DNA of 60,899 nt. It comes from a virus. Taxonomy: Duplodnaviria; Caudoviricetes. Shown piece by piece: positions 46,886 through 57,427 of this stretch. The stretch lies in the IMG/VR virus record IMGVR_UViG_3300009164_002363, positions 1 to 60,899 of that record. The stretch is one strand, 5' to 3'. The notes under the pieces were generated by a model. It had not been told where the DNA came from, made no database searches, and saw only the letters and a list, made by a program, of their open reading frames with translations. The translations under genes were made by a program, and so were the position numbers. Positions within the stretch are counted from its first letter, which is position 1, and every line of letters begins with the position of its first letter.

Positions 46886-47899
46886 TTGAGTAATCTTTTT
46901 AAAAAAGTAGCCTGTTTTACAGACATCCACTTTGGATTAAAGTCTAACAGCCAAGTACATAACCAAGACTGCGAGGATTTCGTAGATTGGTATATTGCCA
47001 AAGCCAAGGAGGAAGGGTGTGATGTTGGAATTTTTATGGGTGATTGGCATCACAATCGCAACAGTCTTAATATCACTACTATGGACTATAGTCTTAGGGC
47101 CCTGGAAAAGCTCGGTAAGGCGTTTGATCAATTTTATTTCTTTCCTGGCAATCATGATCTTTATTACAAAGACAAACGAGATATACACTCTGTCGAGTTC
47201 GGCAAGTATATTCCTGGAATTACTGTTGTTCATGAGCCTACTACCATTGGCGATGTTACACTTTGCCCGTGGCTCGTCGGAGAAGAATGGAAAGCTGTAG
47301 GTAAAAAAGGCGGCAAATATATATTTGGACACTTTGAGTTGCCCAGCTTCTTTATGAATGCTATGATACAGATGCCGGATCACGGTGAGATTCAGCTAGA
47401 TAGCTTTAAAGGATACGAACTAGGATTTAGTGGGCACTTCCACAAACGCCAACAGCAACGTAATATGATCTATATTGGCAATGCATTTCCTCATAACTAT
47501 GCAGATACATGGGATGACGAGCGCGGCATGATGATCCTTGAGTGGGGTGGTCAGCCAGAGTATCACACATGGCCCATGCAACCAACATTCCGCACGGTTA
47601 AACTAAGTCAACTTATTGACGAAGCTGATACAATTATTAAACCTAATCAGCATCTGCGTGTTAGTCTTGATATTGATATCACTTATGAAGAGGCAAGTTT
47701 TGTCAAAGAAGACTTCATGAACAAGTACGACATTCGAGAATTAACACTTATTCCCGAAAAGAAAGAATTAGAAATTAATACTGACATTGACATACAGGCA
47801 TTTGAGAGTGTAGATCAAATTGTTAGTAATCAACTAATCAATATCGAAAGCGATACATTTGATAAAAAAATATTGTTGGAAATTTATAATAGCCTATGA
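46886..47899 (+). CDS. gp47: Mre11/SbcD-like recombination endonuclease
   Basis: DIHFG, GDWHH, GNHD, GHFE and SGHFH phosphoesterase motifs; TTG start after GGAG. Confidence 0.93.
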   Translation: MSNLFKKVACFTDIHFGLKSNSQVHNQDCEDFVDWYIAKAKEEGCDVGIFMGDWHHNRNSLNITTMDYSLRALEKLGKAFDQFYFFPGNHDLYYKDKRDIHSVEFGKYIPGITVVHEPTTIGDVTLCPWLVGEEWKAVGKKGGKYIFGHFELPSFFMNAMIQMPDHGEIQLDSFKGYELGFSGHFHKRQQQRNMIYIGNAFPHNYADTWDDERGMMILEWGGQPEYHTWPMQPTFRTVKLSQLIDEADTIIKPNQHLRVSLDIDITYEEASFVKEDFMNKYDIRELTLIPEKKELEINTDIDIQAFESVDQIVSNQLINIESDTFDKKILLEIYNSL

Positions 47900-49674
47900 T
47901 CAAAATTAAGGATTTAACCGTAAAAAACTTTATGAGTGTGGGTAATCAAACCCAAGCTGTAAATTTTGGACGTGAACAATTAACTCTTGTGCTAGGAGAA
48001 AACTTAGATCAAGGTGGAGATGACAGCGGATCACGCAATGGTACAGGTAAAACTACTATTGTTAATGCATTAAGTTTTGCATTATTTGGTACTGCACTGA
48101 CTAACATCAAGAAAGATAACTTAATCAATAAGATTAATAACAAGAACATGTTAGTTACTTTATCGTTTGAGAAAGACGGTAATAAGTATAAGATTGAACG
48201 TGGTCGTAAACCTACGATTATGAAGTTCTATGTTAATAGTCAAGAGCAAAGTGCAGAGTCTAATGACGACAGTCAGGGCGATATGCGAGAAACGCAGAAA
48301 GATATTGACGAGTTGTTAGGTATGAGCCACGATATGTTCAAGCATATTGTTGCTCTTAATACCTATACAGAACCGTTTCTCAGCTTAAAAGCTAATGAAC
48401 AACGTGAAATTATTGAACAGTTGTTAGGTATTACATTATTAAGTGAAAAAGCTGACTTGCTGAAAGAGCAAATTAGAATTACTAAAGAATCAATCTTTCA
48501 AGAAACTGCTGATATAGAAGCTTCTAAAAAATCTAACGATAAAATACAAGTAAGTATAACTGGTTTAGAAACTAGACAATCAGCTTGGTATGCGCAACAA
48601 AAAACAGATTTCGAAAAAATTGCAAATAGTATTACAGAGCTGCAAAACGTTGATATTGAGCGTGAATTAGAACAACATGCCAAGCTAAAACAATATAATG
48701 AACATGCAGCTAAGATTAAAAGTCTCAATAAAGAGAAAGCAACCTTAGAAACAGCAGTCATACAAGCTGATAAGAGCGTTACTAAGTATACTAAAGAGTT
48801 AGAACAGTTAAAAAATAAGACATGTCCTGCTTGCGAACAGGGATTACATAGTCACAAGCATGAAGAAATGACTTCTAGTGCCGAGAAAAATCTAGCAGAT
48901 GCTATGCTGTATTTGCAAGGTGTTAGTGATAGCTATACTAGCGTATTACAAGAATTAGAAACTATTGGTGACATCAATGGCAGGCCTAACACTTACTATG
49001 ACACTGTAGAAGAAGCATTAAAGCATCAAAACAATCTTACTAGTTTAGAATCTGCTCTAGTAAAAAGAACAGATGAAGTTGACCCGTATCAAGAACAAAT
49101 TGACGATTTAAGGCACACTGCTATCCAAGAAATATCATGGGATAACATTAATCTACTGAATAGTATGAAGGATCATCAAGAGTTTTTGCTCAAACTGCTG
49201 ACTAATAAAGATTCGTTTATTCGTAAGAAGATCATTGATCAAAACCTTGCCTATTTGAATAACAGGCTTACCTACTATCTTGACAAGATGGGATTACCTC
49301 ACCAAGTAAGTTTCCTAAACGATTTAAACGTTGAGATTACTCAGTTAGGACAAGATCTAGACTTTGACAACTTGTCTCGTGGCGAGCGTAATCGTTTAAT
49401 CCTTGGATTGTCGTGGGCATTCCGTGATGTATGGGAAAGTCTGTATCAAAGCATTAATTTATTGTTTGTTGATGAACTTATTGACAACGGATTAGATGCG
49501 AACGGTGTAGAAAATGCTTTAGGCGTACTTAAGAAGATGGCACGTGAACGTAAGAAGAACATTTTCTTAATCTCACACAAAGACGAATTGATAGGTCGTG
49601 TTAATAATGTGCTTAAAGTTATTAAAGAAAACGGCTTTACCAGCTATGCAAACGATATTGAAATAGAAGAATGA
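47896..49674 (+). CDS. gp46: Rad50/SbcC-like ATPase
   Basis: NGTGKTT Walker A, CPAC zinc hook, LSRGE signature, LFVDE Walker B, ISHK. Confidence 0.93.
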   Translation: MIKIKDLTVKNFMSVGNQTQAVNFGREQLTLVLGENLDQGGDDSGSRNGTGKTTIVNALSFALFGTALTNIKKDNLINKINNKNMLVTLSFEKDGNKYKIERGRKPTIMKFYVNSQEQSAESNDDSQGDMRETQKDIDELLGMSHDMFKHIVALNTYTEPFLSLKANEQREIIEQLLGITLLSEKADLLKEQIRITKESIFQETADIEASKKSNDKIQVSITGLETRQSAWYAQQKTDFEKIANSITELQNVDIERELEQHAKLKQYNEHAAKIKSLNKEKATLETAVIQADKSVTKYTKELEQLKNKTCPACEQGLHSHKHEEMTSSAEKNLADAMLYLQGVSDSYTSVLQELETIGDINGRPNTYYDTVEEALKHQNNLTSLESALVKRTDEVDPYQEQIDDLRHTAIQEISWDNINLLNSMKDHQEFLLKLLTNKDSFIRKKIIDQNLAYLNNRLTYYLDKMGLPHQVSFLNDLNVEITQLGQDLDFDNLSRGERNRLILGLSWAFRDVWESLYQSINLLFVDELIDNGLDANGVENALGVLKKMARERKKNIFLISHKDELIGRVNNVLKVIKENGFTSYANDIEIEE

Positions 49675-49946
49675 ACTACGAAGAGTTGCACGATCAACTA
49701 ATGAAAGAATTCAGAGCCTACTTTGAAGACTATCAAAATTGGGCAACTACAGAGTCGCATGCCAGTGGTATGCGTACTCGCGCACACTTGTCAGAAATTA
49801 GACGATTTGCCAGCGCATTACGAGTAGAAATACTAGAAACACGTAGAACTAAACCAAAAATTAAATCTCCTGCATATAGGGCTGCAAAGCTCGCAGAACA
49901 ACAGGCTCAGAACCAACAGGCTCACGGGAATGATGATGCTAACTAA
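49671..49946 (+). CDS. small basic helical protein (possible nucleic-acid binding)
   Basis: 91 aa; ASGMRTRAHLSEIRRFASALRVEI helix and Lys/Arg-rich tail. Confidence 0.6.
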   Translation: MNYEELHDQLMKEFRAYFEDYQNWATTESHASGMRTRAHLSEIRRFASALRVEILETRRTKPKIKSPAYRAAKLAEQQAQNQQAHGNDDAN

Positions 49947-49949
49947 AGC

Positions 49950-50378
49950 ATGTCATGGACTTATCAGAATGAAATTATCGAAACACTCCCCGAAGAGTGC
50001 ATCGGATTTGTATATCTTATAACCAATGTCATCTCTGGCAGAAAATATATAGGCAAAAAACTTGCTAAATTCTCTAAGACTACAACTAAAACTGTAAAAT
50101 TAAAGAACGGTACCAAGAAAAAAAAGAAAATTCGCAGTAAGATCGATTCTGACTGGCGCGACTATTATGGTAGTAGCGTAGAATTAACTAAAGACATAGA
50201 CTCACTAGGCAAAGAAAATTTCACAAGAGAAATCTTATATTACTGCAACTCAAAAGCGCAATGCTCTTACATCGAGGCCAGAGAACAATTCTCCCGTAAA
50301 GTATTAGAATCAAACGAGTATTACAACGGACACATACAAGTTCGTGTACACGGCTCACACATTATATTAAAATCTTAG
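49950..50378 (+). CDS. stand-alone GIY-YIG endonuclease
   Basis: GFVYLITN..GRKYIGKK, DYYGSS, FTREIL, EAREQF, YYN; no C-terminal DNA-binding domain. Confidence 0.85.
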   Translation: MSWTYQNEIIETLPEECIGFVYLITNVISGRKYIGKKLAKFSKTTTKTVKLKNGTKKKKKIRSKIDSDWRDYYGSSVELTKDIDSLGKENFTREILYYCNSKAQCSYIEAREQFSRKVLESNEYYNGHIQVRVHGSHIILKS

Positions 50379-50830
50379 GCTCATCAAGCAGTAATAGCAA
50401 GCGCAAGCTAACATCGTGCGCCCGTATACCTGGATCTCGGATCGCAGGGAAGGAAACTCTAGCTGCTAAGAGTACTTAACCACCATCCTTAACAGGACGA
50501 GGATCGCAAAGCTGCCGCGGTTTGGTTATTTAAAGGAATTAAAGGCAAAAAGAGGGAGAAATACCCACGTTTGCATGTATGTTAGCGTATGCATGTAGGC
50601 CGCCGTCATATAAAGACACAGCTCGAGGTACCGGATGACCGCCTCTGTAATGCTGTAACGCTAGGTGATAAATGTGCAACTCAGATAATGTTGAATTTAT
50701 TTCTTTGCCCGCAAGGGCAAAGTGTGACTGAACAATCTAGATAATATTTAAACTGCTTCGCAGCAGTAATATTAAATACAAAAAGAAAATAGTTCGAGCG
50801 CAAGCGATGAACAGATGTACGCAGTACATC
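50379..50830 (+). ncRNA. candidate large structured non-coding RNA (family unassigned)
   Basis: Longest intergenic gap in the window; about 10 stem-loops including GCAA tetraloops and a G-U-rich helix; no credible ORF. Confidence 0.55.
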
Positions 50831-50849
50831 ATTAACTAAATACAATATC

Positions 50850-51806
50850 ATGAAAGTATACGACATTATCAGTGAGGCAACACCTCAATATACACCAGGA
50901 GCTCTGGCAAGAAGAAATGCTGCAAGAACACAGACACGTGTTGCACCATCTCAAACAGCGACTCCTACTGCTACACCTGCAAAAACTAGTGGCCCGTCTG
51001 ATCTTCGTAATCAAAGAACTGCTCAGGCTGCGGAACTACGTAGGCAGGGTGGACCTAAATCGTTTCGAAAAGCTGGTGATATAATAAAAAAACATCATGA
51101 GATATGGAAAACAGGTAACGGTGAGGCAGCAAAAGCAGTAGAAAAATCTTTCTACGCTAAACTTGGTACTAGTACTGTATGGTTTCTTAAAGCCTTAGGT
51201 TTTGTATCTGCAGCTGGTGAGTTATGGGTCGACCTCGGCGGCTTAGAAGAACTTTATAATAATAAAGAAATTACTAAAGAAGACTACGAAGCAGAGAGAG
51301 AGTTTGCATTTGGTGTATTTGAAGCGCAAATACTTGTACCAATGATAGCTAGAGCACTAGCAAATAGTCGAATAGTATTAATGATAATTCGCGGTATTAA
51401 AAACATAGTACTTGGTGCCGGCGCAATTGCAGGTGTTACAACTGGGGGAGTAGTATCAGCCGCATCAATTGCTGCTATGATTGCTACTGAAGCTGGCATC
51501 ACTGCATTACAGATGTGGATAGGTAGTGATCAAGGTAAAGATTATATTGCCAGCGGAATAGGCAAATGGTTAAGATACCCCGGTGCAGTTGGTGAAAGCA
51601 TTTGGAACTGGTTAATGAATGGATTTAAAATAAGTACATTCTATGCAGATGCAGAAAAGAAACAAGGCAAGTTTCAAAATCAGAAAGCTCTTAAAGCTGC
51701 CACAACACCTCAAGAAAAACAAGCGGCACAACAGGCAATTGCCGCTGCTGACGCAGACGCAGACGATGAAGCATCTCGAGCCCGTGGCAGAAAAGATTTA
51801 AAGTAA
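50850..51806 (+). CDS. hypothetical late protein, possibly internal head/ejection protein
   Basis: CTAAATA at 50836-50842; N-terminus MKVYDIISEA resembles T4 capsid-targeting leaders; hydrophobic Ala/Gly-rich segments. Confidence 0.6.
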   Translation: MKVYDIISEATPQYTPGALARRNAARTQTRVAPSQTATPTATPAKTSGPSDLRNQRTAQAAELRRQGGPKSFRKAGDIIKKHHEIWKTGNGEAAKAVEKSFYAKLGTSTVWFLKALGFVSAAGELWVDLGGLEELYNNKEITKEDYEAEREFAFGVFEAQILVPMIARALANSRIVLMIIRGIKNIVLGAGAIAGVTTGGVVSAASIAAMIATEAGITALQMWIGSDQGKDYIASGIGKWLRYPGAVGESIWNWLMNGFKISTFYADAEKKQGKFQNQKALKAATTPQEKQAAQQAIAAADADADDEASRARGRKDLK

Positions 51807-52031
51807 CGGCATACCACTTTTCTTAGTGGCTTCTATGTTTTCTTTGATAAGAGAGCTCATAATATTCCTATCTTCATAGGAATACAAATGAAATAAGTCT
51901 TGACTGGTCACTCCGCCACGCATGTACCAACTTATTTTAAATATCTCTTCCTTAACCTCAGCTGCCTGACGATCAAATGTCTTTAAAAAGTCTTCAAGGT
52001 CAGAGTGTTCGACATAGCCTAGGCGGTTACG
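51798..52031 (-). CDS. gp51-like / tail chaperone C-terminal extension, probably reached by -1 frameshift
   Basis: 77 open codons (RNRLGYVEHSDLEDFLK...SWYMRGG...YSYEDR...GMPLL) in the -1 frame of the upstream gene; first ATG only at 51923. Confidence 0.7.
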   Translation of the reverse strand, partial: RNRLGYVEHSDLEDFLKTFDRQAAEVKEEIFKISWYMRGGVTSQDLFHLYSYEDRNIMSSLIKENIEATKKSGMPLL

Positions 52032-52849
52032 AAAAAATTTGATTGGTCCAAATTAACAGTCACAGCATCTTCAGTACCACACGTAGCACATTTGATCTGA
52101 GATTTAGGCATAGTCCATTTTTCTTTATTTTCTTCTAGCTTTTTCTTAATAGCAGCATACAACTCTCTATCGCTATTTTTAACCCATTCAACAATAAATT
52201 CTTTTTCATTAACAATTCCGTCTGGAACTTGAACACTGTCAATGCTGTTGATAAACAGTTGAGTTTGTACATCTGCTAGATTTTTATACACTAGATCAAC
52301 TTGCACTTGTTGATCTTGCTCGTTTTCCATAGTGCTAACTTGTGCCAACATCTTTTGTAATTTAAAATTTTCTATGTTAATTTCTGTAAGTTCTTTATAA
52401 CTTAGTGGACGCAGAGTAACTATTAGTTCACCTACTTGAATTTTATTATCAAATGTTAAACTGCTGTAGTATTCTAAGAATGTTCGCAAGTCAATATCAA
52501 ATTCATTTTCTGTTCCGCAGTTATTACACGTATGTCTAATACCTAGCAATTCACCAAACGTAGCAATTCTAATAGCAGTAACAATACTATCTACGTCTAG
52601 AGTGGGCATCTTACTAGCGTCTTTGATAAACGGACAACAACTTTCAATAACTTTAACTGTTGCTTCACCAGTAAACAATGCGTCTGGAGTCTTGTACATG
52701 ATTTCATCCATGCCGTTCATACCAAAGATTGGTACATTGTTATAGTCACCGTGAAACGCACCTTCTTCATAGTGTAATCCTTTGCTGGGCAAAGAGATGT
52801 AGATTTTAGGCTGGCGATAGTACTTCTGTAGAGGGTTTAGTGGGTTCAT
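52019..52849 (-). CDS. gp26-like baseplate hub assembly / tail assembly chaperone
   Basis: RQPKIYISLPSKG, LDVDSIVTAIRIATFGE, two CxxC pairs (CNNC, CATC), C-terminal NFF; next to the tape measure gene. Confidence 0.75.
   Translation of the reverse strand: MNPLNPLQKYYRQPKIYISLPSKGLHYEEGAFHGDYNNVPIFGMNGMDEIMYKTPDALFTGEATVKVIESCCPFIKDASKMPTLDVDSIVTAIRIATFGELLGIRHTCNNCGTENEFDIDLRTFLEYYSSLTFDNKIQVGELIVTLRPLSYKELTEINIENFKLQKMLAQVSTMENEQDQQVQVDLVYKNLADVQTQLFINSIDSVQVPDGIVNEKEFIVEWVKNSDRELYAAIKKKLEENKEKWTMPKSQIKCATCGTEDAVTVNLDQSNFFVTA
52031..52040 (-). promoter_or_regulatory. -1 ribosomal frameshift slippery site (A AAU UUU UUC)
   Basis: Two overlapping in-frame X XXY YYZ heptamers three codons before the stop. 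Confidence 0.7.
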
Positions 52850-52912: not shown

Positions 52913-55900
52913 ATGTCAATGTCTAAACAAGAACTAGTAGATGCCCTTAAAGAAGCAAGCCGAGCCGGCTATTTTGGAGGCATGGGCGGCGGTGGCGGTG
53001 GCTCTGGTGGCGGCGGTGGCTCTGGTGGCGGTGGAGGCAGTTCAGGCGCCGGACAGTTTGGTAAAGAATTAGGTGCTGCTGGAGATGCCGTTAAAGGATT
53101 AGGCAATGCAGCTCTAGGAGTTGGATCAAAAATTGCTGAGGGTGGTGCAAAATTAGGAGATGTAACTCAGGCATTGTCAGCTGGGTTTTCTGGACTAGGA
53201 GCAAGTGGGTCTGTTCTTGGAGCGTCTCTTGACAAAGGCGCCAAAGCCTTAAACTCACTTGGTCAAAATATTGATCAAAATATTGATACTTGGAGAAAAC
53301 TATCCGACACTGGTTTATCGTTTGGTAACGATATAATGGCTATGAAGGATCAAGCAAGTGCTGCTAGGATGAGCATTGCTGAGATGTCCGAAGTAATGCA
53401 GAAGAATAATTCTTCTATGTTAGGGTTTGGGGCAACTAGTGCTGAAGGCGCTAAAAAGTTCTCTAAAATGGCCGATACGTTTTTTACTAGCGGACTAGGT
53501 GAACAACTACGTGGTATGGGATATACTACAAAAGAACTTAATGATGTTCTAGCAGTTAGTATATCAGGATCAAAACTTAAAGACTTAAAAGACAAAGACG
53601 GACAAGACCGATCTCTTAAAGCCGCAGCAAGCCTAGCTACTGAAATGGATGCAGTAGCTAAGATAACAGGACAAAGTAAACAAGAACAACTTGATGAGTT
53701 AAGACGTAAAGCAACCGACGGACAACGTATGGCTGCTATTGATGAAGCTATAGCCAAAGGTGGCGTTGGCGCAAAAGAAGCGTTTGATGCAATCAGTGCT
53801 AATGGTAAGTTGATGGGTCCGCAGTTTCAGAAACTTGCAGAAGATATGGCTTCTATGGGACGCCCGTCAGAAGGTATGGAAGCAGCCTACGGACTACTAA
53901 GTTCTGATGCTAAGAAATTAATGAGTGAAGCAGGCGAAGCTGCTCGTAGCGGTGACAGAGAACGTGCTGCAATGCTGACAAAACAAGCGGCTGCTGAGCA
54001 AGCCGCTTTTCAAAACACTAGTCAATATCGAACAATGGCTGCTCAAGCAGGCATTAAAGAAACACAAGAAAGTTATGCACAAGGTGCTAAGTTTAGAAAT
54101 GCTCTTGCAGATGCAGGAGGCAATATTAAAAATGTAGAAGCTTCAATGAAAAAACTTGACGATCAAGTTAAATCAGAACAACAAGCTGGAGGCAAAGATG
54201 ATCCAAATGCAACTGCAGGTGCCGGCATTACTAGATTTGCAGTTGATCTTGAAAGCCGAGGACGTGACTTAACCAAAGTACTAAACGATCAAGTTATTCA
54301 ACCGTTAGCAAAAGATATTGCACCATCAATTGTTAAAATGAGTAAAGATCTAAAATTAGGTTCATCGACAGTTGTGCAAACTGAAATTGGTGACCCAATG
54401 AAAAAAGGATACGATAAATCTAGAATTGATCGTACTGTAAAAGAAGAAGCAGATAAATCAGGCGGTGCAATGTCTGATAAATCGCCATTGCATAAAGATC
54501 TAGTTGAATTTAATAAGTTAATTAACGGAAATCAAAAGCAATCTGACACAACTCTCAAAGTGCTTGAAAAGATGGCAGCTGATCAATCTAAGGCAACTGG
54601 TAAAACTGTAACTGCTGAAGATGTAGCTAAGAACGCTACTAACACACCCGGTGCAATGGCGGATATTGTTAAACAAATTAAAGCAGCATTGCCGGCAGAT
54701 GCACAGCTTGATAAAACAGAAGCTGAGAAAACAAAGAAAGATAAGATAACTCATGTATCTGGAGATAAAGCAAAACCGGCTGGCGAATCATTAGGAGCTA
54801 TGGTTGAATTTGCAGGAGGATTGTTTAGGGGAACTCCGGGCAAGGTTGAAATAGTTAACGGTGGTGCTGCTGCACCAGTACCTAAACGTGAAAGCGGTAG
54901 TTTAGATAAAGCCGGTAAAATGTTTGAAGATTGGGGTAAAGGTACTATGGTAGAATTACACGGTATGGAAAGTGTAATGCGACCACAAGACGTATCTAAA
55001 GTCATTGAATCTGCAATGGCCGGTGTAAGAAAAACTATGCCAAAAGTAGATATGGCAGGTGCTGGTGCCAAGTTAGAAATGCCCAAGTTAGAAATGCCCA
55101 AGTTAGAAATGCCCAAGTTAGAAATGCCCAAGTTAGAAATGCCCAAGTTAGAAATGCCTAAATTAGATACTGCTATGGGTAAAGATAAAGAGTTTGCAGC
55201 TCTAGCAGCTGAAATAAGCAAAATGGGCAAAGCAGATATGTCCAAGTTAGATTTGTCTAGTATGACTAAATCAATTAGCACTAGTATTAGTTCAGTAAGT
55301 GGCGGCGGATCTACTACCACTAAACAAGTTCAAAATGACAGCAGTAAGGCTGCTGAAAAAGAATTAGCTTCTGTTAGAGAACAGATGCAAGCTGAAAAGA
55401 TGGCTCTTAGAGAAAAGTTAAAAGCTCAAATAGGTGACGGCAGCAAACTAGGTGGCAATGCAGTTGCTAAAGAAATGCGAGTTGGAGAAGAAGGTAAAGG
55501 AATAGCTGAAAAGTATAAAGCTATAATGGAGCCTTTACAAAAACAAATTGATGCTGGAATTAGTTGGGAAACTACTAAGAAAGCAGCCGCCATTGAAGAA
55601 ACTACTAAGATGGTTAGTGAACAGGTATCTATTACTAAAACTAGTAACAGTACGCTTGCTGACATGTATAAAGATGACAGCAAATCTAAACTAGATCTTG
55701 CTAAGAAAACTAATGCTGATGCATTTAAAGAAGCAGAACTAGCAAAGAGTGTTATTGGTACTTCAGTAAAAGGTATGAGCGACAATATGATTGAATCTAT
55801 GATACCAAAAGGTGCAAAGATTGAAGATTATTACATCGACATGAATGACAAGATACAGAGTAATTCAGCTGACTTTGTTGCAAACATGGAGAAAAATGCC

Positions 55901-57427
55901 AAAGCGTCTACCAGTGTAATTGAAACATATTCAACTACTATATCATCATCTAGTAAAAAAATGGCAGGTGATATTGCTGGCGCATTACCTGGCGCTACAA
56001 CTAAAACACCGGCAGCACCGGCAACCACTCCTGCGCCAATGAGTATGGCATCAATGTCTGTAGGTATGGATAGAGCCATGCTTAAAACAGACGATCAAAA
56101 GAAAGTATTTGATGAGATAATGACTCTCAACGACACAGCTTCAAAGGCAAAAAAATTATCGTTGCAAGAAGAAATGATGGCAGCAACTGCAACAAATAGA
56201 GCCACATCTGAAGCTATTGATCTAATGGAAGAAAAATTAGATGCTGAGGGTAAAGGGTTTAAAGACCTTACAGGCAAACAAAAAGAAGAATACGAAGCTC
56301 TTAGAAAACAACAAAATGAATCTTTTAATGCATCTGACAAAGCAAGAGAAGCAATCAAAGCTGTTGACCGTGCAGAACAAGCTAAACAAAACTTGCAAAA
56401 AATGGGCTACGATGTAGTAGTCAAACAAGAAGAAGATAAAACAAAGATTATTGAAGCTTCTAGTGAAAAGATTAAATCAGATATAGCTGATGCACTGCCT
56501 GTAAAAGAAGTAGCGGCACAACAACAAGAATTTAAATCACAGTTTACAGAGAGCCAACAAAAGATTATTGATGACTATAAAGGCTACAGCGAAGAAAATC
56601 GTTCCTTCCATGCACAAGCAATGGAATCGGGTATTAAAGAAGATACTAAAACTGCAGAGAAAATTGGCAATCGAATTGCCAAAATGAAGGCAGATATTGG
56701 TGATAGACAAGCTACTAAAGAAGAAGAAGCTGCACTTGAAAATGAAACATTGAATAAAGCAATGTTTGAAAAGCAAGTAGAAAAGAAAAAAGAAATGCTA
56801 GATGTTATGCAAAATCTAGGCGAATACAGTGCTAAACGTGAATTAGAACTTAAACAAAAAGCAGCAGACGAAGCAAAAACAGTAGCAATTGAAGATAAAA
56901 AAACTGATGCAATTACTGCAGAACTACCAGTTAATGGTGTAGCAATGGGTCCTCAACCCGAAGTAAGTGACCAAGAGGCAAAACAGAAAGTAGCAGACGA
57001 AGCTAAATCAGAATTAGCAAGAGAAAGTCGAAGAAGCACCCCACAGGATGCACCAAAAAGCAAAGCTATGAGCATATCAGATATGATGTCTGGCGGCATG
57101 ACCATGGGCGCAAATGGTATGCCAATTATGAAGAAAATTGATACTGCTAAAAATAGTATACCAGCTAAACCTGCAGATGCAGATGCAGATAGAGAAAATG
57201 CAAAATTCAAAAGACAAGCAGAAGAGAAAAAAGCAGAAGCTGCTAAAATAGCTGAGAAAAAGCCCGATGCCAAAGCAGCAACTAAAGAATCTACTCTCTC
57301 TGACGTGGTATCGGCGCTGAATACGTTAAATAAACAGATGGGCCAACTAATAGCAGTTAGTGAAGAAGGCCACAAATCTACAACCAAAGCTGCGAAGAGT
57401 GGTGCTAGTAACATATACGCGAGATAA
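52913..57427 (+). CDS. tape measure-like protein (1504 aa)
   Basis: Long Ala/Lys/Glu/Gly-rich helical ORF next to the chaperone; GTMVELHGMESVM motif. Confidence 0.75.
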   Translation: MSMSKQELVDALKEASRAGYFGGMGGGGGGSGGGGGSGGGGGSSGAGQFGKELGAAGDAVKGLGNAALGVGSKIAEGGAKLGDVTQALSAGFSGLGASGSVLGASLDKGAKALNSLGQNIDQNIDTWRKLSDTGLSFGNDIMAMKDQASAARMSIAEMSEVMQKNNSSMLGFGATSAEGAKKFSKMADTFFTSGLGEQLRGMGYTTKELNDVLAVSISGSKLKDLKDKDGQDRSLKAAASLATEMDAVAKITGQSKQEQLDELRRKATDGQRMAAIDEAIAKGGVGAKEAFDAISANGKLMGPQFQKLAEDMASMGRPSEGMEAAYGLLSSDAKKLMSEAGEAARSGDRERAAMLTKQAAAEQAAFQNTSQYRTMAAQAGIKETQESYAQGAKFRNALADAGGNIKNVEASMKKLDDQVKSEQQAGGKDDPNATAGAGITRFAVDLESRGRDLTKVLNDQVIQPLAKDIAPSIVKMSKDLKLGSSTVVQTEIGDPMKKGYDKSRIDRTVKEEADKSGGAMSDKSPLHKDLVEFNKLINGNQKQSDTTLKVLEKMAADQSKATGKTVTAEDVAKNATNTPGAMADIVKQIKAALPADAQLDKTEAEKTKKDKITHVSGDKAKPAGESLGAMVEFAGGLFRGTPGKVEIVNGGAAAPVPKRESGSLDKAGKMFEDWGKGTMVELHGMESVMRPQDVSKVIESAMAGVRKTMPKVDMAGAGAKLEMPKLEMPKLEMPKLEMPKLEMPKLEMPKLDTAMGKDKEFAALAAEISKMGKADMSKLDLSSMTKSISTSISSVSGGGSTTTKQVQNDSSKAAEKELASVREQMQAEKMALREKLKAQIGDGSKLGGNAVAKEMRVGEEGKGIAEKYKAIMEPLQKQIDAGISWETTKKAAAIEETTKMVSEQVSITKTSNSTLADMYKDDSKSKLDLAKKTNADAFKEAELAKSVIGTSVKGMSDNMIESMIPKGAKIEDYYIDMNDKIQSNSADFVANMEKNAKASTSVIETYSTTISSSSKKMAGDIAGALPGATTKTPAAPATTPAPMSMASMSVGMDRAMLKTDDQKKVFDEIMTLNDTASKAKKLSLQEEMMAATATNRATSEAIDLMEEKLDAEGKGFKDLTGKQKEEYEALRKQQNESFNASDKAREAIKAVDRAEQAKQNLQKMGYDVVVKQEEDKTKIIEASSEKIKSDIADALPVKEVAAQQQEFKSQFTESQQKIIDDYKGYSEENRSFHAQAMESGIKEDTKTAEKIGNRIAKMKADIGDRQATKEEEAALENETLNKAMFEKQVEKKKEMLDVMQNLGEYSAKRELELKQKAADEAKTVAIEDKKTDAITAELPVNGVAMGPQPEVSDQEAKQKVADEAKSELARESRRSTPQDAPKSKAMSISDMMSGGMTMGANGMPIMKKIDTAKNSIPAKPADADADRENAKFKRQAEEKKAEAAKIAEKKPDAKAATKESTLSDVVSALNTLNKQMGQLIAVSEEGHKSTTKAAKSGASNIYAR
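55068..55157 (+). repeat. perfect 15-bp tandem repeat x6 (CCAAGTTAGAAATGC; KLEMP)
   Basis: Six identical copies read directly, plus degenerate flanking copies. Confidence 0.95.

Follow-up and report, generated by a model that had tools for sequence, protein, structure and literature searches.

What fills the gap behind a small GIY-YIG gene of a T4-like phage fragment is the question raised by positions 50379-50849 of the IMG/VR record IMGVR_UViG_3300009164_002363, a 60.9-kb fragment of an uncultured virus (completeness estimate 17%) that was analysed over its whole length of 60,899 nucleotides (nt) and is called the window here. The gap measures exactly 471 nt, from the stop codon of the open reading frame (ORF) at 49950-50378 to an ATG at 50850, in a local gene order that is T4-like. 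The original prediction, made from the letters alone, had described it as hairpin-dense and non-coding, and we found it conserved, non-coding and highly structured. Positions 50379-50833 form a large, compactly folded + strand RNA of about 455 nt with three domains and three pseudoknots, and on balance we favour reading this element as a self-contained RNA gene of mobile genetic elements and not as a leader for one protein gene. A coding reading of the gap is ruled out by the density of stop codons (about 9-10 per + strand frame inside the element, with no frame open throughout) and by the absence of Pfam or PHROG matches for the two ORFs that lie inside it.

Comparative evidence for a folded RNA

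A degenerate pattern made from the core of the motif described below gave at least 119 matches on viral contigs, and filtering left 83 of the 119 matches listed and five divergent copies as true copies, the remainder being chance matches; four of the divergent copies were verified by Rfam at 83.8-94.7 bits. Sixty viral copies with pairwise identity below 93% were aligned (alignment A1, to which the columns and counts out of 60 refer), and mutual information together with helix extension defined 98 base pairs, namely P1-P12, P14, P15 and three pseudoknots, which make a model of 16 helices with the pseudoknots included. Standard pairs occupy 96.0% of the cells of these pairs compared with 83.1 ± 0.3% in 500 shuffles, none of which reached the observed value, and 35.0-41.6% when the partners were slid by 1-3 columns. 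Two-sided changes were seen in 65 of the 98 pairs (44.8 in the 500 shuffles and 28-32 with slid partners) and 744 cells were doubly changed (194 and 56-92, respectively), with every helix adding to the compensatory signal. The covariation check on homologues that had been proposed for the locus thus supports the large multi-domain RNA with G-U pairs and long-range helices that had been suspected there. The comparison of the fold with shuffles, also proposed, came out better than shuffles but only modestly so: the single sequence folds at -126.2 kcal/mol on the + strand (z = -2.12, equalled by 2 of 100 shuffles) and has z = -1.66 on the other strand (equalled by 8 of 100), and it is the comparative evidence that makes the structure certain. 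Because the near-invariant G-U pairs (UG in 60/60 copies at columns 322/334, GU in 59/60 at 144/174 and UG in 56/60 at 20/102) would read A-C on the other strand, the folded strand is the + strand.

Domain 1 (50396-50531) is the Polynucleobacter-1 RNA, RF01718. This family was the sole match when the whole window was compared with Rfam 15 at gathering thresholds (50396-50531 on the + strand, 136 nt; 103.8 bits, E = 2.1e-21, cut-off 37; all 141 model positions covered). In the 60 copies the pairing of its helices P1, P2, P3, P4 and P6 ranges from 95.6 to 100%, and each of them has 2-4 compensatory pairs. A permissive Rfam scan of 50300-50900 (E up to 10) brought no other family near its cut-off, the second-best match being cow-rumen-2 (RF02947) at 50569-50673 with 20.2 bits against a gathering score of 66. 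The same scan gave no tRNA, transfer-messenger RNA (tmRNA), RNase P RNA or group I/II intron, and ARAGORN found no tRNA or tmRNA genes in the window, in agreement with the earlier impression that the element belongs to none of these classes. Its presumed novelty stood in part: the 5' 136 nt belong to a known family, and the remaining about 300 nt reach no Rfam cut-off. A match to Rfam had been named as the outcome that would make the RNA real but not novel, and such a match covers the 5' part only. Positions 50532-50849 were matched in all 77 listed viral loci whose sequence continues for at least 430 nt beyond the motif (identity 69.5-85.7% and median aligned length 225 nt over this downstream stretch of about 320 nt). 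Since all 77 loci retain the downstream part along with the motif, the whole gap behaves as one unit, and the accurate reading is that of a known motif within a much larger undescribed whole.

In the table of a 2010 survey, Polynucleobacter-1 is entered as a probable RNA, probably cis-regulatory, with a question mark for switch, and its source is given as 'Burkholderiales, fresh water/estuary' (PMC2864571). The habitat signal found here (fresh water, Burkholderiales) agrees with that table, in which T4-like phages are not among the sources (PMC2864571). In the main texts searched, the name Polynucleobacter-1 occurs only in this survey (PMC2864571).

Architecture of the three domains

All the helices below are on the + strand. 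Domain 1 consists of the Polynucleobacter-1 motif and the pseudoknot PK1, in which GCAGT (50388-50392), a 5' strand outside the Rfam model on its 5' side, is paired to the loop of P3 (50462-50466; columns 16-20/102-106; 97.9% paired, 3/5 pairs compensatory). The hairpin P1 (50401-50421) pairs GCGCA at 50401-05 with TGCGC at 50417-21 and is 100% paired with 4/5 pairs compensatory; it replaces the stem AGC-GCAA-GCT that had been drawn at 50400-09. P2 (50429-50448) is formed by CCTGGATC and GATC(G)CAGG (95.6% paired, 5/8 pairs invariant and 2 compensatory), and P3 (50457-50472) by ACTCT and AGAGT (99.1% paired, 3/4 compensatory), its loop taking part in PK1. The long-range helix P4 (50477-82/50523-28; TAACCA with TGGTTA; 100% paired, 4/6 compensatory) encloses P5 (50487-88/50495-96 plus 50483/50499; TCC with GGA) and P6 (50502-07/50517-22; 99.7% paired, 4/6 compensatory).

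Domain 2 is a doubly pseudoknotted core made of P7-P11 and PK2, with P9 as one of its two pseudoknots. It opens with the hairpin P7 (50554-50566; GGG/CCC around a purine-rich loop; 87.7% paired, 4/4 compensatory), followed by the G-U-rich hairpin P8 of 12 base pairs (50569-50600; 95.5% paired, 12/12 compensatory). The P8 loop TTAGCGT (50582-50588) pairs with 50658-50664 in PK2 (columns 260-266/382-389; 99.3% paired, 6/7 compensatory). P9 joins GTCAT at 50605-09 to ATGAC at 50635-39; its 3' strand lies inside the P11 loop, and the helix crosses P10 and P11 (95.0% paired, 3/5 compensatory). P10 (50618-22/50652-56) is 94.3% paired with 3/5 pairs compensatory and P11 (50625-29/50641-45) is 97.0% paired with 2/5 compensatory.

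Domain 3 comprises two repeats, R1 and R2, around the hairpin P12, and then P13-P15. P12 (50703-50722) pairs CTTTGCCC with GGGCAAAG (93.1% paired, 2/8 compensatory). The small hairpin P13 (50753-50763; CTGC-TTC-GCAG) is misaligned in A1 and was left out of the 98-pair count, and a hairpin of at least four base pairs is found at its place in 60/60 copies, with the loop TTC in 40 and TAC in 9. An AT-rich stretch (50765-50790) lies ahead of P14 (50792-50812; GTTC/GAAC with an inner CG/CG and the loop CAAG; outer stem 82.6% paired, 4/4 compensatory), and P15 (50813-50831; 95.5% paired, 7/8 compensatory) is the terminal hairpin.

Seven of the nine stem-loops originally listed coincide with covarying helices: CCTGGATC/GATC.CAGG is P2, ACTCT/AGAGT is P3, TAACCA/TGGTTA enclosing TCC/GGA is P4 with P5, the G-U-rich helix at 50570-50599 is P8, ACAGC/GCTGT with GAGG/CCTC is P10 with P11, CTTTGCCC/GGGCAAAG is P12 and GATGTAC/GTACATC is P15. 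Two had to be corrected, the one replaced by P1 and ACTGCT/AGCAGT, which survives as the shorter P13 while its outer pairs are an extension specific to the window. P1, P6, P7, P9, P14 and all three pseudoknots were absent from that list.

Twin repeats

R1 (CAACTCAGATAAT, 50677-50689) and R2 (CAATCTAGATAAT, 50733-50745) are 13-nt + strand segments, single-stranded in the model, which stand as direct repeats on either side of P12, 56 nt apart and fixed relative to the helices in 60/60 copies. Four of their columns vary (states G/A; G/C/A; A/G; T/A), and at each of these the state in R1 equals the state in R2 in all 60 copies; three adjacent columns are fixed throughout as CTC in R1 and TCT in R2. 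Change in the same direction is not the behaviour of a helix, which argues for one reader of both segments. Divergent viral copies have unrelated repeat cores that still match within each RNA (TCTGAGTCAAG and TCTAAGTCAAG in the locus L105), and the bacterial copies described below show at least six cores (AGCGAAAG, ATCAAAAG, AGAGAAAG, AACAAAAG, GGAGAAAG and GGCGAAAG). Additional copies of the repeat in the window show no excess (17 matches with up to two mismatches, 21.8 expected).

Pairing of R1 and R2 with the conserved linker GUUGUUU was considered and dropped, as it shows no covariation, and a role as promoters was set aside on reading by eye, with no usable -35 element at the proper spacing. 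An ATG within R1 opens a frame of 18 codons that closes at a TAA within R2 (50688-50744); several relatives have ATA in place of the ATG, and the frame is probably accidental.

Occurrence in phages

Synteny is constant in the viral loci: gp46, a small ORF, a GIY-YIG homologue of 141-151 amino acids (aa) and the element. The GIY-YIG homologue is immediately upstream of the RNA in 77 of the 83 listed loci, five of the other six having no upstream sequence present, and its stop codon lies 32-89 nt ahead of the CCTGG block; in some relatives its reading frame extends into the first bases of the element. What follows the element is either a + strand ORF of 189-719 aa or, directly, a minus-strand baseplate gene, and the downstream ORF of the window (50850-51806) has blastp relatives in only 5 of the 83 listed loci. 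Among cultured phages, a blastn search (word size 11) of the whole gap against 50,697 records gave no match. Homologues of the GIY-YIG protein were found in 515 cultured-phage records, mostly of cyanomyoviruses, with the best match in Methylophilales phage Melnitz (50.4% identity). RF01718 was found at none of the GIY-YIG loci of the three nearest cultured relatives, and it therefore seems that the GIY-YIG protein does not need the RNA.

Bacterial copies and genomic islands

Of 151 Burkholderiales genomes sampled across the order, 3 contain RF01718 above its cut-off, and so do 17 of the 151 examined from one large Burkholderiales genus (genome size 1.1-2.8 Mb), four of which have two copies; in the genus of another carrier it occurred in one of four genomes and in the family in one of 33. 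Such a patchy spread is typical of mobile DNA. A scan of bacterial genomes with the degenerate pattern gave no real copy among the 120 matches listed. The bacterial RNAs retain domain 1 at 67-104 bits and, read by eye, the layout R1-P12-R2-P14-P15. A sequence profile of domain 3 detected two of four bacterial copies and none of 120 background loci, and a covariance model of the phage domain 2 found the window and four divergent viral copies but none of four bacterial copies, even unfiltered, so that the homology of domain 2 in bacteria rests on reading by eye.

The gene surroundings are of another kind than in phages. A divergently oriented DUF6641 gene lies upstream of the RNA in 15/15 bacterial loci, and a small tyrosine recombinase (188-212 aa; PF00589 verified in two) lies downstream on the same strand in 14/15. 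Unrelated cargo ORFs in either orientation are inserted directly after the terminal hairpin and before the recombinase, and beyond the DUF6641 gene there are variable genes that include a Zorya-like operon, a type III restriction-modification pair and a patatin. A tRNA gene fragment is located about 1.4 kb away from one of the bacterial copies. No papers on DUF6641 were found in the searched literature, and PADLOC reported nothing for the bacterial neighbours.

Two side observations concern these islands. The minus strand of the locus L248 (genome G052, contig C4, 10262-17947) bears, right beside the RNA, a Zorya-like defence operon of four genes. Its products are a 493-aa protein that has no firm match, a MotB_plug/OmpA protein, an EH_Signature protein and an SNF2 helicase carrying an Mrr_cat nuclease domain; the same variable position holds the type III restriction-modification pair in L249 and the patatin in L276. 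Furthermore, the leader of about 330 nt ahead of the 188-aa recombinase gene in L271-L283 shows conservation and many hairpins (CGTGGCGAAAATGCCACG and GGTTGCTCTAACC among them); it may be either another regulatory RNA or a site belonging to the recombinase itself.

Ends and expression

The scan for sigma-70-like sites reported only one near the element, TGTACA-17-TAAAAT at 50345-50373, and the region is not richer in such sites than shuffles are (4 found, 3.4 expected). Co-transcription of the RNA with the GIY-YIG gene is plausible because the GIY-YIG frame enters the first bases of the element in some relatives. Between the RNA and the next ORF lies a late-promoter-like motif (CTAAATAC, 50836-50843, + strand): ATAAAT or TAAATA occurs within 70 nt after P15 in 57/60 copies, and seven of the eight positions of the T4 late-promoter consensus are matched there in 41/60. 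These motifs suggest that the next ORF has a late promoter of its own. A scan for intrinsic terminators found none in 49600-51200, and a T-run (at least four T in 8 nt) follows P15 in only 5/60 copies.

Neighbouring genes in the window

The element is positioned between replication and recombination genes and baseplate genes. Upstream lie the SbcD-like gp47 (46886-47899), the SbcC-like gp46 (47896-49674) and, between gp46 and the GIY-YIG gene, a 91-aa ORF (49671-49946), which has homologues in 41 related viral loci among the matches listed, gives no match in Pfam, PHROG or PADLOC and is unrelated to DUF6641. The gene at 49950-50378 (+ strand, 142 aa) is a stand-alone SegE-type GIY-YIG gene (Pfam PF19835, E = 1.8e-32), and the GIY-YIG protein of these phages consists of the domain only, with no DNA-binding domain. 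Its label 'NAD synthetase' in PHROG 447 and in many cyanophage records is, as the Pfam SegE GIY-YIG match suggests, a propagated annotation error. On the other side, the 318-aa ORF at 50850-51806 (+ strand) has no family match and is poorly conserved among the loci; gp26 had been named as the downstream neighbour, and the gp26-like baseplate hub gene is found farther on, at 52019-52849 on the minus strand. A 1504-aa ORF at 52913-57427 has a glycine-rich N-terminus and six tandem copies of the pentapeptide PKLEM, and looks like a tail tape-measure or baseplate hub (gp29-like) protein. No DUF6641 gene and no tyrosine recombinase (0 PF00589 matches) were found in the window, which holds only about 17% of the genome.

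Discussion

What kind of RNA is this? Phages and bacteria have entirely different protein neighbours around the RNA, the downstream ORF of the phages is unconserved and has its own promoter-like motif, and in bacteria cargo sits between the RNA and the recombinase, and for these reasons we prefer, with some reserve, a stand-alone RNA gene carried by mobile elements. Under this reading, transcription of the RNA probably accompanies that of the GIY-YIG gene or follows directly on it, and the RNA probably ends at P15, ahead of the late-promoter-like motif of the next ORF. Our best guess is that the folded core most likely works as a scaffold displaying one recognition segment twice, as R1 and as R2. 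Each copy has a fixed flank of its own (CUC for R1, UCU for R2). The partner of R1 and R2 would vary by lineage: a co-evolving protein is one candidate, and a nucleic acid recognised through base pairing is the other.

Several observations weigh against this. The constant place behind the GIY-YIG gene in phages and before the recombinase in bacteria also fits a role in cis, and P15 is not a canonical terminator, making read-through into the next gene possible. Only 8 of 14 bacterial copies have the same 8-mer core in R1 and R2, and 11 of 14 have at most one mismatch. Mutual information shows no complementary covarying column for R1 or R2 inside the element, no complementary 8-mer is consistently placed within 3 kb in 60 viral loci, and no matching site is consistently placed within 8 kb in 14 bacterial loci. 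Two lake metatranscriptome runs matched, each with 0.07 of the sampled words, one through a 151-nt contig over 50755-50905 (one mismatch) and the other through contigs of relatives over 50392-50463 and 50613-50692, but these contigs are short and carry neither strand nor ends, DNA carry-over is possible, and they are no proof of transcription. Finally, the structure was derived from the same 60 sequences on which it was scored and is thereby favoured over the slid controls; the compensatory excess is too large for this to explain it.

The element may alternatively act in cis, either as a 3' untranslated region of the GIY-YIG/gp46 transcript or as a 5' leader or riboswitch-like sensor for the downstream gene or genes, and so control stability, termination or translation. 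This is how the table of 2010 leans in calling the motif probably cis-regulatory (PMC2864571). The position of the element directly after, or overlapping, the GIY-YIG stop in 77/83 listed viral loci and its place ahead of a same-strand recombinase in 14/15 bacterial loci are what such a region would show, as is a P15 that is not a canonical terminator. We nevertheless consider it unlikely. The phage downstream ORF is conserved in 5/83 listed loci and has the late-promoter-like motif ahead of it in 57/60 copies, cargo ORFs on the opposite strand stand between the RNA and the recombinase in bacteria, where the recombinase has its own conserved leader of about 330 nt, and all three nearest cultured phages have the GIY-YIG homologue without the RNA. 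The element is thus not consistently upstream of one homologous gene family, as a riboswitch or leader would be. The known bacterial cis-regulators are far smaller than a fold of about 455 nt with three pseudoknots, which also counts against a role in cis.

A partnership with an enzyme that cuts or recombines DNA, by analogy with the IS110 bridge RNAs, would make R1 and R2 twin guide-like segments that read one core in two DNA sites. In bacterial islands the candidate enzyme is the small tyrosine recombinase, in phages it is the GIY-YIG nuclease. The recombinase does stand beside the RNA in 14/15 bacterial loci with a cargo slot right after the RNA, the phage RNA adjoins a GIY-YIG domain protein that lacks a DNA-binding domain, and a common variable core with different fixed flanks is what two sites with a common crossover core would look like. 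Still, we regard this as improbable, as the window holds no recombinase, the recombinase and the GIY-YIG protein are mutually unrelated and each is widespread without the RNA, and no identical or complementary DNA site was found within 3 kb (viral loci), within 8 kb (bacterial loci) or at the cargo junctions, where reading by eye gave no match to the repeat cores; the segments are therefore not complementary to co-varying DNA sites within these distances. We know of no precedent for an RNA-guided tyrosine recombinase or GIY-YIG nuclease, which likewise counts against twin guides.

In its boldest form, which we hold to be a long shot, the idea is of a programmable recognition RNA whose core docks the recombinase in islands, and possibly the domain-only GIY-YIG nuclease in phages, with R1 and R2 each pairing with a DNA or RNA site of the same core. 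If this were true, changing the core in both repeats would retarget recombination or cleavage, and the RNA-directed DNA enzymes would gain a new class, distinct from the IS110, IscB/TnpB and Cas families. That the folds and repeats act at the level of single- or double-stranded DNA, for example as an iteron-like origin or a single-strand initiation site, is very improbable: co-changing direct repeats resemble iterons bound by one protein, the AT-rich stretch at 50765-50790 follows them and the element lies at the border of replication/recombination and baseplate genes, but three pseudoknots and strand-specific G-U pairs are hallmarks of folded RNA, the repeats are only two, 56 nt apart and locked to RNA helices in 60/60 copies, and domain 1 is a curated RNA family.

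Returning to the stand-alone RNA gene, the presence of the same RNA in T4-like freshwater phages and in bacterial islands with a recombinase and defence genes points to the biology of mobile elements and not to metabolism. The co-changing twin repeats offer a concrete handle for experiments, as they can be mutated. Should they be recognition segments, a new programmable system could be at hand; failing that, the element remains well suited to structure determination and to a correction of the Rfam model.

Comparison with known RNAs

The nearest relative is Polynucleobacter-1 itself, which Rfam has listed since 2010 as a motif of 141 nt, tentatively cis-regulatory and of unassigned function. 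Its full 141-position model is matched here with the same helices P1-P6, and the catalogued motif is only the 5' third of the present element, which adds the 5' strand of a pseudoknot, the doubly pseudoknotted domain 2 and domain 3 with its twin repeats; in other words, the motif is the 5' domain of an RNA of about 455-560 nt with three pseudoknots. The extended architecture, the pseudoknots, the twin repeats and the contexts in phages and islands appear to be new with respect to the main texts searched, among which a survey of structured RNAs of viruses and a 2026 preprint on coevolutionary mining mention neither Polynucleobacter nor GIY-YIG in their main text; supplementary tables might list the region.

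A second lead is cow-rumen-2 (RF02947), a name that occurs in the searched literature only in the Rfam 15 paper. Sub-threshold matches were found at the homologous place of domain 2 in two of the 17 sources scanned (20.2 bits at 50569-50673 of the window and 22.2 bits at 161-256 of the locus L069, both below the cut-off of 66), and the other 15 sources gave no match at E up to 10. Cow-rumen-2 and domain 2 have the unpaired blocks UUAGC, GCCGCC, GGAUGACC and GUAA in common, but their outer helices do not correspond. The family may be a distant relative of domain 2, which is a lead and not membership.

In the way it might work, the element resembles the antisense immunity RNAs c4 of phages P1 and P7 and CI of P4, in which two direct repeats of a single transcript co-vary identically because one short RNA segment pairs with both. 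The likeness could only be an analogy, as the present RNA is far larger, has no Rfam match to c4 and has no segment complementary to R1 and R2 inside the element or nearby.

In size and habitat the element resembles GOLLD, ROOL and HEARO (the IscB omega RNA), RNAs whose function was unknown at their discovery. It is like them in its length of several hundred nt, in its many helices and pseudoknots and in being carried by phages and mobile DNA, and differs from them in that none of the three is matched at the gathering score or at E up to 10 and in that no IscB/TnpB-like gene adjoins it. The element thus joins a small class of very large and intricate RNAs of bacteria and phages, the roles of which are mostly unsolved.

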